Positions 29,311 to 32,323 of a stretch of DNA of 64,000 nt are shown one piece after another. The notes beneath the pieces were generated by a model that had not been told where the DNA came from, searched no databases, and worked only from the letters and a program-made list of their open reading frames with translations. The translations under genes and the position numbers were made by a program. Source of the stretch: Methanomassiliicoccaceae archaeon (GTDB taxonomy: Archaea > Thermoplasmatota > Thermoplasmata > Methanomassiliicoccales > Methanomassiliicoccaceae); NCBI GenBank assembly GCA_963728405.1, contig CAVSJV010000007.1:160001-224000 (forward strand). Reading direction: 5' to 3'. The first letter of the stretch is position 1, and each line of letters begins with the position of its first letter.

Positions 29311-29982
29311 TCACAGCTCGGTGCACAGCCGCACTAGTTTGTCGATCTGTACTGCCATGGAATCCCTAATGGCCAAGGCGTCGGTACCTCTCTCCCGGTA
29401 CGCCTTCTCCAGGAAGGACGGATACCAGCTGGATATGTGGTTGGAGGGGAGGGGGAGGAACACCAGCATGAGGCCTTCAGGCGGATAGTTGGTGCGAACC
29501 CAGTTCTTGGCCAGGTCGCCCAGCGTCACGATGGTCTGCACCCCCTCATCCAGCAGCGCGTCGACCTCTTTTCTGGAGAGGTCCATGCTGGTCCGGCCGA
29601 GCCCGGTGCTCTCCTCGGCGGGGGACCGATCGAGGTATATCAGATGGCCGTAATGGAAGAGCTTGTACAGCTGACGCATCTTCTCTTCCTCCTGTACGTC
29701 CCACATCTCCCGCAGGAAGTGCTGCACCCTGACCAGCATCCGACCGGGGTCCCCCGCCGCGAAGATCATGCGGCGGGCCGACTCATCGTCAAATGTCTTA
29801 CTGGCCCGGTAGATAGGCATGAGGGCCGGGGATGGGGATTCGGCCACTATGATCACCTTGACCTGTGGTGGACGGGGTACATTGATCTCCGCTCCACCGT
29901 AATCGATGCCCTTGGCGCCATCCCGTTCCATTCCGTCGACAGGCAAACTTATCCTCGGCCGGGACATGTGCAAGGGGCCCAT
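29311..29982 (-). CDS. Divergent uracil-DNA glycosylase-superfamily protein
   Basis: KVIIVAESP (motif A-like), TIVTLGDLA, FLPLPS (motif B-like, with His replaced by Leu). Confidence 0.5.
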   Translation of the reverse strand: MGPLHMSRPRISLPVDGMERDGAKGIDYGGAEINVPRPPQVKVIIVAESPSPALMPIYRASKTFDDESARRMIFAAGDPGRMLVRVQHFLREMWDVQEEEKMRQLYKLFHYGHLIYLDRSPAEESTGLGRTSMDLSRKEVDALLDEGVQTIVTLGDLAKNWVRTNYPPEGLMLVFLPLPSNHISSWYPSFLEKAYRERGTDALAIRDSMAVQIDKLVRLCTEL

Positions 29983-30523: not shown

Positions 30524-30630
30524 CGGTCCGCTCCAGCCTGATCAGGGGAGTCAGGGGTCCGACCGCCCTCGGTCAGGCTGAAACGCCGTGTCCACAAAAA
30601 AGTTAATAACGCCACCCCAATGTCGCAGCA

Positions 30631-31875
30631 ATGATTCAGAGGCCCCGGGGGACCCGCGACTTCGGTCCCGAGGAGATGGAAAGGAGGCGCTATCTTGAAA
30701 ACATCATGCGCAGGGAGGCCGCGCTGTTCGGCTTCCGTGAGGTATCCACGCCCATCTTCGAGCATACTGAGCTCTTCACGCTCAAGTCCGGTCCCAATGT
30801 GGTCGAGGAGATCTACGCCTTCCATGATAAGGGAGGCAGGGAGATATCCCTCCGTCCGGAACTCACCGCCCCGGTCATGCGTTTCTTCGTCAACGAGCTG
30901 ACCAACTACGCACGTCCGCTGAAGATGTTCTACTTCGGCCAGTGCTTCCGTTACGAGCGGCCGCAGTCCGGCCGGTATCGCGAGTTCTACCAGTTCGGCG
31001 CCGAGCTCATCGGCAACCCCGGGCCGGAATCGGACGCTGAGGTCATCGCCCTGGCCGCCTCCATCATGAATAGGGTCGGGCTGAAGGAACACAATATCCG
31101 CATCGGCCACATCGGGGTGCTGCGGGGTATGCTCTCTCAGGCGGGCATCGATGGCGTCAAAGCCCCTCTCATCCTGCAGAAACTGGACAAGAAAGAGTAT
31201 GATGAGGCTAGGACCAGGATGACCGAGGCCGGCATGTCTGCCGAGGACATCGAGAGGATCATCGAGATCACCAAGACCACTGGGTCGGTGGAGGTGCTGG
31301 AGAAGATCAGTGGGGAAGCTAAGGACCATCTCGGGGCGGTCTTCCGCATACTCGCTGACTATGGGTTCACCAATGTCCAGGTCGATCTGGGTGTGGTCCG
31401 CGGACTAGACTACTACACGGGCATGGTGTTCGAGATGGATGCTCCGGTTCTAGGTGCGGAGAAGCAGATCTGCGGCGGAGGCTCGTACTCCCTGACCGAG
31501 CTGTTCGGAGGAGAGAAGACCTTCTCCACGGGGTTCGGGATCGGGTTCGACCGGACGCTGCTGGCCCTGGAGCGGGAAGGTTATCGGACGCCGATCCAGG
31601 CGGTCGGCGCTTACGTAATCCCAGTCAGCGATGCGGTCAAGGACGAGGCGTTTAAGATCACTGCCCAGCTTCGCCAGGCCGGCATCGTGACCGAGGTCGA
31701 CCTCATGGGCCGCAATGTCTCCAAGAACTTCAAGTACGCCGCCTCCATCAATGCCCGAATGGCCGTGATAGTGGGAGAGAAGGAGCTAGCCCAGGGATCG
31801 GTAGCGCTACGAAACATGACCACCGGCGAGCAGAAGTTGGTGAAGAAGGACGACCTTCTTTCAGAGCTGAATTAG
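30631..31875 (+). CDS. hisS: Histidyl-tRNA synthetase
   Basis: RPRGTRDF, LRPELTAP, FRYERPQSGRYREFYQFGAE, RGLDYYTG, GFGIGFDR. Confidence 0.96.
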   Translation: MIQRPRGTRDFGPEEMERRRYLENIMRREAALFGFREVSTPIFEHTELFTLKSGPNVVEEIYAFHDKGGREISLRPELTAPVMRFFVNELTNYARPLKMFYFGQCFRYERPQSGRYREFYQFGAELIGNPGPESDAEVIALAASIMNRVGLKEHNIRIGHIGVLRGMLSQAGIDGVKAPLILQKLDKKEYDEARTRMTEAGMSAEDIERIIEITKTTGSVEVLEKISGEAKDHLGAVFRILADYGFTNVQVDLGVVRGLDYYTGMVFEMDAPVLGAEKQICGGGSYSLTELFGGEKTFSTGFGIGFDRTLLALEREGYRTPIQAVGAYVIPVSDAVKDEAFKITAQLRQAGIVTEVDLMGRNVSKNFKYAASINARMAVIVGEKELAQGSVALRNMTTGEQKLVKKDDLLSELN

Positions 31876-31876
31876 T

Positions 31877-31963
31877 AAAAAGTGCCCAAGGTCAGCGCTT
31901 GGTGGGGATTCGGAGGAAAAACTACTTCTTAGGAGGAGAGTTGAGCCACCGACCTCGGGCACC
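31877..31963 (-). ncRNA. Candidate stand-alone small RNA: 17-bp closing stem, 49-nt C/U-rich loop with anti-SD motifs, U-tract terminator
   Basis: GGUGCCCGAGGUCGGUG pairs fully with CGCUGACCUUGGGCACU (4 G-U pairs, valid only on the minus strand); followed by a U-run; TATA box TTATATAG 24-31 nt upstream. Confidence 0.6.
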
Positions 31964-31986
31964 ATATAAAACCTAATATTGGACTT

Positions 31987-31994
31987 CTATATAA
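31987..31994 (-). promoter_or_regulatory. Putative TATA box (TTATATAG) for the candidate sRNA
   Basis: Archaeal TATA consensus at the expected spacing from 31963. Confidence 0.5.
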
Positions 31995-32089
31995 CCATAT
32001 GCCCTTTTCTTTCAGGTCTTTTCAGCCTATTTCTACATGGAATTTTTCCAATCCAGTTAATTATCTGTCTCGAGAAGCCAAACTCTTTT

Positions 32090-32290
32090 TTACCGCTCTA
32101 CATCGAAGTAGATCCGTACCAGTGCGTGGTACTCGGTTATGTGTCCCTCCCCGACCATGCAGTCAAGCTCCCTTACCCTGACCCACCGGATGTTCCTGAC
32201 CGTCTTGGCGGTCTCGGTGACCGCATCATCGACCGCCTTGGCGAAGCTCTCCGGCGATATTCCAACGATCTCCAGTACTTTCTCAACCAT
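32090..32290 (-). CDS. Dodecin (flavin-binding) family protein
   Basis: MVEKVLEIVGISPESFAKAVDDAVTETAKTVRNIRWVRV...GHITEYH. Confidence 0.85.
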   Translation of the reverse strand: MVEKVLEIVGISPESFAKAVDDAVTETAKTVRNIRWVRVRELDCMVGEGHITEYHALVRIYFDVER

Positions 32291-32323
32291 GGTATCGTGG
32301 AAGAACGTGGGCAGGAAGAACAC

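Follow-up and report, generated by a model that had tools for sequence, protein, structure and literature searches.

In Bacteria, the unpaired UCCC motifs of the small RNA (sRNA) RsaE are reported to bind Shine-Dalgarno (SD) regions and block initiation (PMC2790875). In Archaea, loops directed against the ribosome-binding site (anti-RBS loops) are reported to act similarly in Methanosarcina mazei sRNA154 and sRNA41, and sRNA41 masks RBSs inside polycistronic mRNAs (PMC5867862). Here, we analysed a stretch of 64,000 nucleotides (nt) from a Methanomassiliicoccaceae archaeon (contig CAVSJV010000007.1, positions 160,001 to 224,000; hereafter the window, meaning the whole of this stretch). Between the convergent genes for histidine-tRNA ligase (hisS) and dodecin, its minus strand encodes a hairpin that is a member of a conserved archaeal RNA family without an entry in Rfam 15. 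To our knowledge, conservation beyond the level of a genus is uncommon among archaeal small RNAs, and the mechanism is known for very few of them.

The RNA of the window resembles RsaE/RoxS and the other UCCC-motif sRNAs of Firmicutes (S. aureus RNAIII, the Rsa RNAs) in having several unpaired C-rich motifs in its most conserved parts and in being conserved well beyond one genus; SD pairing is proposed or shown for the RsaE/RoxS group (PMC2790875). That group is bacterial, with no sequence or Rfam relation to the archaeal RNA. RsaE is made of a 5' hairpin and a terminator hairpin, with its motifs in loops and linkers, whereas the family described here has one long closing stem around a single loop of 42-49 nt. 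The two M. mazei RNAs are, like it, archaeal, intergenic, conserved within a lineage and provided with loops that carry anti-RBS sequence (PMC5867862). They differ in coming from Methanosarcina rather than Thermoplasmata and in forming two stem-loops, a comparison made between descriptions. They are reported to be conserved within one genus, whereas the RNA family studied here extends over several taxonomic families in two or more orders.

A hairpin RNA with its own promoter

An earlier note, made from the letters of the window and its open reading frames (ORFs), had read on the minus strand a TATA box, a stem, a loop with three motifs and a T tract. This layout proved right in every detail checked, save that the spacer between TATA box and stem, put at about 24 nt, measures 23 nt. 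The elements of the locus and its two neighbours are the following:

31987..31994, minus strand: TATA box TTATATAG, promoter of the sRNA (read from the sequence; the box is kept in the upstream alignment of homologues).
31986-31964, minus strand: spacer of 23 nt from the TATA box to the stem (read from the sequence).
31963, minus strand: putative transcription start at the first G of GGUG, with a conserved UU before it (placed by its distance from the TATA box).
31947..31963, minus strand: 5' strand of the closing stem, GGUGCCCGAGGUCGGUG (sequence, minimum free energy (MFE) fold and alignment of 42 homologues).
31946-31898, minus strand: loop of 49 nt, C/U-rich (read from the sequence).
31928..31946, minus strand: loop motif L1, GCUCAACUCUCCUCCUAAG, anti-SD-like, with the family core CUCAACUYUCCUCCU ((nearly) invariant columns in alignments A1, A2 and A3).
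31912..31927, minus strand: variable U-rich linker with a second CCUCC (UUCCUCC) at its end (alignments).
31900..31911, minus strand: loop motif L2, GAAUCCCCACCA, with the family core UCCCC, mostly AUCCCCACC (AUCCCCA columns invariant in A1).
31881..31897, minus strand: 3' strand of the closing stem, CGCUGACCUUGGGCACU (sequence, MFE fold and covariation).
31877..31881, minus strand: T5 tract, likely an archaeal terminator (sequence; one base from the hisS stop codon TAG at 31873-31875).
30631..31875, plus strand: hisS (histidine-tRNA ligase), the convergent neighbour (NCBIfam TIGR00442, 411 bits for a cut-off of 287).
32090-32323, minus strand: dodecin gene, convergent with hisS (NCBIfam, 55.7 bits, below the cut-off of 75).

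The convergent setting proposed for the hairpin is thus borne out by NCBIfam. Read by hand, every one of the 17 stem positions is paired, with G-U or U-G at four of them, in agreement with the earlier count, and the MFE fold of the minus strand returns the same stem of 17 base pairs (bp) at -32.6 kcal/mol (z = -3.56, 0/200 shuffles as stable). The fold of the plus strand is weaker (-31.6 kcal/mol, z = -2.18, 7/200 shuffles as stable). The loop of the window copy contains almost no G and carries CUCCUCCU, UUCCUCC and CCCCACC.

BLASTN recovered a second copy in the same genome and homologues in its relatives. The second paralogue lies outside the window (G000:C5:194911-194993, minus strand, corresponding to L002:1496-1578, minus strand), 62 nt upstream of the gene encoding the CCA-adding enzyme (cca). 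An alignment of 42 copies (A1) has a consensus stem of 16 pairs, of which 13 have changed on both sides. Among these homologues, 95.1% of the stem cells are paired; shifting the partner by 1-3 columns lowers this share to 31-51%, and no column shuffle out of 500 matched any of the stem measures. Such compensatory changes support the selection on RNA structure that had been proposed from the single hairpin. G-U wobbles fill 110 of the 668 stem cells; because these would be mismatches on the opposite strand, the strand is fixed and the gene is on the minus strand, as first suggested. The homologues of identical architecture, with their covariation, far surpass what chance would produce.

The loop motifs are (nearly) invariant in A1 (columns GCUCAACUYUCCUCCU and AUCCCCA(CC)) while the sequence of the stem drifts. 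They are kept in 72 further loci, and the most diverged copies still hold UCCUCC and UCCCC, so the CCUCC- and UCCCC-type motifs singled out in the window are conserved in its relatives. The linker between L1 and L2 varies in length and in sequence, its U-richness being constant and its indels not multiples of three. It contains UUUUCCUCCGAAU in the rows of copies linked to hisS and UUUUCUGAAU in those linked to cca, and the second CCUCC within it is restricted to the hisS-linked paralogues of the window's family of genomes. Across the RNA family, the closing stem has 16-17 bp and the loop 42-49 nt with little internal pairing. The stem is continuous in A1 and within the same order, and has a variable internal loop in sister lineages (UA/GAA, CA/UCUC and others). 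We rejected by eye a K-turn in this internal loop, where tandem G-A pairs are absent, and also an alternative helix GGUGG/CCACC joining the top of the stem to L2, since the variants of A1 (GGCUG with CCCCACA, GAGUAG with CCCCAUCA) are not compensatory.

The RNA had been described as unannotated, and this agrees with the searches of Rfam 15. At the gathering threshold, the whole window yields only three transfer RNAs, all away from the hairpin. At E <= 10, positions 31600-32300 give four weak matches, none of them on the minus strand over the hairpin, and the nearest one, sR10, is on the plus strand (11.3 bits for a gathering score of 45, E = 3.9). A C/D-box sRNA was also rejected: A1 has no RUGAUGA, a CUGA in the 3' strand is seen by eye only in the window copy, and the Rfam C/D matches are weak and on the other strand. 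Full-text searches on noncoding RNA in Methanomassiliicoccales, archaeal anti-SD sRNAs, the transcriptome of M. luminyensis, and archaeal CCA-adding enzymes and small RNAs returned no description of this RNA. The noncoding RNA table of Borrel et al. 2014, according to its methods, was built from Rfam, which lacks the family (PMC4153887).

In Archaea, the distance from the TATA box to the transcription start is about 23-27 nt. We surveyed the promoters of 111 unique homologous loci anchored at the first base of the stem. In 76 of them, the end of the best A/T-rich octamer is 22-24 nt upstream of the stem, and widening the range to 21-25 nt raises the number to 87; the octamer is preceded by an A-rich stretch, and a conserved UU stands right before the stem. 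An A-rich stretch followed by an octamer at fixed distance has the geometry of an archaeal promoter with B recognition element (BRE) and TATA box that starts transcription at the first G, which fits the TATA box that the earlier note had read before the stem. The upstream neighbour changes from one locus to another (RNase HI, panD, dodecin, a metallo-beta-lactamase (MBL)-fold hydrolase or a small ORF without family) while the RNA and its TATA box stay. Hence, the element is not the 3' untranslated region (UTR) of dodecin, an outcome that had been left open. It has the marks of a stand-alone sRNA gene, with its own promoter in varying contexts.

The other end of the transcript is less regular. 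What archaeal termination needs is oligo-T rather than a hairpin, and runs of four or more T (T4+) within 15 nt of the stem occur in 10 of the 36 hisS-linked and 14 of the 68 cca-linked unique loci. They are too scarce to define the 3' end across all copies; we infer the ends of the transcript, and its size of ~85-90 nt, from the elements listed above. The 27 nt that follow the stem of the cca-linked copies have a pyrimidine fraction of 0.64 versus 0.50, and a further C-rich pentamer is found there in 35/68 loci versus 6/68 in a control located 35-62 nt downstream, counts that are not independent given that the sequences are related. Tails with CCUCC- or CCCCC-type motifs after the stem are seen, e.g., in L024, L038, L039 and L128, and that of L024 reads CACCUCCUA, which resembles the 3' end of 16S rRNA.

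With its promoter, a stem backed by covariation and invariant loop motifs, the family is sharp enough for curation. These data define a new archaeal sRNA family, for which an anti-SD mechanism appears plausible from the sequences.

Distribution and two fixed genomic places

In a sample of 151 genomes of the same order, the covariance model matches 84. Broken down by family (numbered f1 to f30 here), the matches are 23/23 in f1, 1/1 in f2, 45/47 in f3, 4/4 in f4, 10/10 in f6, 0/1 in f5 and 0/64 in f7. The single f5 genome has a diverged copy upstream of cca that was missed by the filtered search. The RNA was not found in any of the 64 genomes of f7, a family of gut-associated archaea with small genomes, at least 17 of which are 98-99% complete. 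In the sample of the class, 29 of 151 genomes match, and those outside the order fall in f10 (15/15), f13 (10/10) and f30 (2/2), with no match in the remaining families of this sample. In the sample of the phylum, two of 151 genomes match, both from the same order, and none of the other classes sampled does. A search with filters off at 22 cca loci (19 from other Thermoplasmata families, two from f7 and one from f5) scored only the f5 locus, L136 (E = 0.015).

An exact scan for the two motifs in one genome per species (185,579 species) returned 72 stretches, all of which score with the covariance model, and whose titles name Methanomassiliicoccales, Sysuiplasma, or unclassified metagenome-assembled genomes of Thermoplasmata or Euryarchaeota. 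The family therefore belongs to Methanomassiliicoccales and a few sister lineages. Most Methanomassiliicoccales, methanogens that live in sediments, digesters and guts, carry it, as do sister Thermoplasmata. Genomes have one or two copies. Three matches to the model were found in the f3 genome G116 (C22:1793-1875, minus strand; C22:6200-6282, plus strand; C80:79358-79446), the first two being 4.3 kb apart, which may be an extra duplication.

The 111 unique loci occupy essentially two places: 68 are linked to cca, 36 to hisS, and seven are unassigned, several of them at the edge of the fetched stretch. No conclusion here depends on the unpublished genome G238, which enters only a tally of cca. 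In the 68 cca-linked loci, drawn from several families in two or more orders, the RNA is upstream of the gene of the CCA-adding enzyme (433-451 bits with TIGR03671) and on the same strand, with a gap of 47-141 nt (median 78) between sRNA and start codon in the 50 loci evaluated. The 36 others are convergent with hisS: 25 end within -9..+5 nt of the end of hisS, nine overlap it and two are farther. The window copy is a hisS-linked paralogue, a type seen in f1, f3 and f6. The cca-linked copy is probably ancestral, since it is the type present outside the order.

The sRNA looks like a transcription unit separate from both of its partners. In 30 of the 50 loci evaluated, an A/T box precedes the start codon of cca by 23-30 nt. 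In the window, AAGTTAATAA lies about 24 nt before the ATG of hisS, which has no SD (positions 30598-30633), and cca loci are alike, e.g., L044, L051 and L088. With A/T boxes so close to their starts, both cca and hisS look leaderless. The cca-linked sRNA may nonetheless be read through into cca. On the hisS side, the plus strand has no T4 run in 31876-32004, the first one being at 32005-32008; if the 3' UTR of hisS reaches it, this UTR would run antisense to the entire sRNA.

Part of this synteny could be explained by inheritance alone, because the MBL-hydrolase/cca block, itself restricted to this clade, persists in f7, where the sRNA is missing. Within flanks of 1.5 kb, this pair is found in 12 of 32 cca loci (L136-L168), all in f5, f7 and f10. 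The upstream MBL-fold gene was rejected as RNase Z (57.6 bits for a cut-off of 293), and the true RNase Z is encoded elsewhere in the genome (353 bits). In f10 and f13 (L044, L051, L052 and others), the sRNA is preceded, at a near-constant spacing of ~85-91 nt, by a same-strand ORF of 118-122 amino acids (aa) without Pfam or NCBIfam family. In the genus of the window, genes resembling those of corrinoid proteins and methyltransferases stand just upstream of the cca-linked paralogue.

Pairing with SD regions as a possible function

Among the readings considered, we rank first, though tentatively, that the RNA is a stand-alone, trans-acting sRNA with anti-SD-like seeds that blocks the initiation of translation. 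Its own TATA promoter would drive transcription from the first stem G or a position beside it. The two ends of the RNA would then pair into the stem of 16-17 bp and hold out a loop of 42-49 nt presenting CUCAACUYUCCUCCU and UCCCC(ACC), to which the window copy adds a third motif, UUCCUCC. Exposed in this way, the CCUCC and UCCCC stretches would act in trans on SD-led mRNAs, by pairing with their G-rich ribosome-binding regions and so blocking initiation; in these archaea, SD-led genes are probably for the most part internal to operons. Both the trans action and the targets are inferred.

Several observations are consistent with such a mechanism. The 16S rRNA of the genome ends in ...GGAUCACCUCCUAAC, with the tail CACCUCCU, and CCUCC and UCCCC have the same sense as its anti-SD end. 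The C-rich motifs of the loop are unpaired, invariant and complementary to the SD core, as in the sRNAs that act through C-rich or anti-SD seeds. The genome makes use of SD signals: GGAGG peaks ~12 nt before crude start codons, and an SD core is found at 285 of 1648 starts. If the RNA is an anti-SD regulator, it would provide a lineage-wide post-transcriptional control over the SD-led part of genomes in which leaderless genes appear to be numerous. In any case, it is a short, concrete and testable RNA for the cultured members of the order.

Other results weigh against this mechanism. Full complementarity was found genome-wide only at the antisense strands of the two sRNA genes themselves, and the next sites reach 15-15.5 out of 19. 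Of the candidate starts in the start-region scan, 213 passed and none was compelling, with no conserved specific target; the best candidate, asd (for the cca-linked copy), keeps only the GGAGG core in five relatives. When 14,238 purine-rich sites were scanned for duplex energy (duplexfold), the top of the ranking consisted of generic G-rich stretches only. About 20 invariant nt across a clade of class level exceed what an SD seed of 6-8 nt needs, and this excess is at least equally compatible with a fixed macromolecular partner, either a protein or a conserved RNA. The neighbours cca and hisS, which look leaderless, would not be SD targets, and the strict positions beside two tRNA enzymes are not explained by SD pairing. 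Finally, the sole sequencing run available, one of doubtful kind, consists of contigs that probably come from a relative and is uninformative on expression, strand and transcript ends.

The RNA was also considered as a guide for rRNA and rejected, as the best duplexes of L1 and L2 with the 16S and 23S rRNA of the genome are no better than those of shuffled queries. The two rRNA genes are on different contigs (16S at G000:C7:320642-322101, 23S at G000:C4:250951-253875); this fits the unlinked rRNA genes reported for the order (PMC4153887).

Alternative partners of the RNA

An RNA that binds a protein, as a scaffold, decoy or sponge, would have its stem present the single-stranded C/U-rich motifs to a pyrimidine-recognising protein, in an architecture working like a Y RNA or a CsrB-type sponge. 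We consider this rather unlikely, while noting that motifs of ~20 and ~10 nt nearly invariant across a class-level divergence, with no conserved RNA target in the target and rRNA scans, would fit it. Candidate partners would be the KH-domain factors of small-subunit maturation (Dim2/Pno1 with Nob1), which recognise 16S rRNA at its CCUCC end, or an Sm-like protein on the linker, which is always U-rich. L1 has CCUCCUAA in common with the 3' end and trailer of the 16S rRNA of the same genome; however, the bases after CCUCCU vary between the paralogues of one genome, which argues against exact mimicry of the trailer. The analysis turned up no partner protein. Nothing in the annotation of the neighbouring genes points to RNA binding: the upstream ORF of 118-122 aa belongs to no family, and that of 270 aa is an MBL-fold hydrolase.

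The likeness to Y RNAs is one of general layout: these also have a long stem that pairs the ends around a large pyrimidine-rich loop, with a U-rich 3' end and a length of ~85-110 nt. The earlier note had mentioned this likeness and set it aside for lack of the bulged-C Ro60 site, a judgement that holds. There is no conserved bulged-C helix and no match to the Rfam Y RNA model, and the genome (93.75% complete) has no TROVE/Ro60 protein (PF05731, 0 matches), in a search whose controls were positive in Deinococcus and Bacteroides.

It is also unlikely, in our assessment, that the RNA is tied to the enzymes of tRNA 3' ends, the ancestral copy acting on cca and the second one on hisS. This could proceed in cis, by read-through into cca or occlusion of its promoter and by antisense pairing with the 3' UTR of hisS, or else the RNA could serve the CCA-adding enzyme as a decoy or as a substrate. 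In favour of the proposal are the 68 of 111 loci upstream of cca on the same strand in several families of at least two orders, the 34 of 36 hisS-convergent loci that abut or overlap the 3' end of hisS, and the lack of a T4 run on the hisS strand before 32005, which would leave the 3' UTR fully antisense to the sRNA. The position may, however, be inherited with the conserved MBL-hydrolase/cca block, and cca seems to have its own promoter. CCA-adding enzymes put a CCACCA tag on unstable RNAs that begin with GG. The RNA begins with GG, and most cca-linked copies read CCCCACCA, with CCACCA in the loop, but this CCACCA is internal and not at the 3' terminus, and it is absent from many hisS-linked copies (CCCCACAUG, CCCCAUCA or UCCCCC). 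If the RNA is tied to cca and hisS, it would amount to a novel way of controlling tRNA maturation in Archaea.

A stronger version, in which the RNA belongs to the biology of tRNA 3' ends and is not a general repressor at all, appears improbable. In it, the RNA would act as a decoy, a substrate or a sensor for the CCA-adding enzyme or for tRNA 3' ends, tuning cca and, through antisense pairing with its 3' UTR, hisS; a CCACCA-like stretch is indeed encoded beside the 3' strand of the stem. Nothing tRNA-like is seen at the hairpin: ARAGORN finds three tRNAs in the window, none of them there, the Rfam tRNA model has no match to it, and the end of the stem is unlike the tRNA-His of the genome. T-box leaders and the thrS operator are likewise conserved structured RNAs beside the genes of tRNA enzymes. 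The family differs from them in appearing to be a separate transcription unit, and its hisS-linked copy is convergent rather than a leader; searches of the hairpin with Rfam and ARAGORN detected no T-box specifier, T-box bulge or tRNA-like fold. We know of no archaeal example of tRNA-mimic or T-box control of tRNA enzymes, and a sensor of tRNA 3' ends would be an archaeal counterpart of it.

The readings of the hairpin as a mere terminator or as a small ORF are effectively excluded. There is very little chance that it is no separate RNA gene, serving as the terminator or 3' UTR of dodecin or as a two-way terminator shared with hisS. The GC-rich hairpin followed by T5 between convergent genes, with a plus strand that also folds, would suit such a role. 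Against it stand the TATA box conserved at a fixed distance, the invariance of the loop motifs amid a varying stem, the same RNA upstream of cca with no dodecin gene nearby, the G-U pairs that fix the strand, and the reliance of archaeal termination on oligo-T. The chance of a small protein is negligible: an ATG-initiated frame of 34 codons, read by hand from the AUG at 31965, does run through the hairpin, but this AUG is present in only 3 of the 42 aligned homologues (L001, L002 and L025; the others have UUG, UUA, UCG and similar), the changes in the stem compensate pairing instead of being synonymous, and the linker indels break the frame.

Some minor features of the window surround the RNA. 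An ORF of 223 aa near hisS (29311-29982, minus strand), without NCBIfam family, has relatives at the same position in other genomes (cluster c8). The end of hisS contains a small hairpin with an ACGA loop (31842-31875, plus strand) that matches Guanidine-II weakly and probably by chance (17.7 bits for a gathering score of 32, E = 0.45). The hisS stop codon is TAG, in an order reported to encode pyrrolysine. One sequencing run (0.04 of the sampled words) has seven contig pieces on the window, one of which covers 31831-31994 at ~93% identity and probably comes from a relative.

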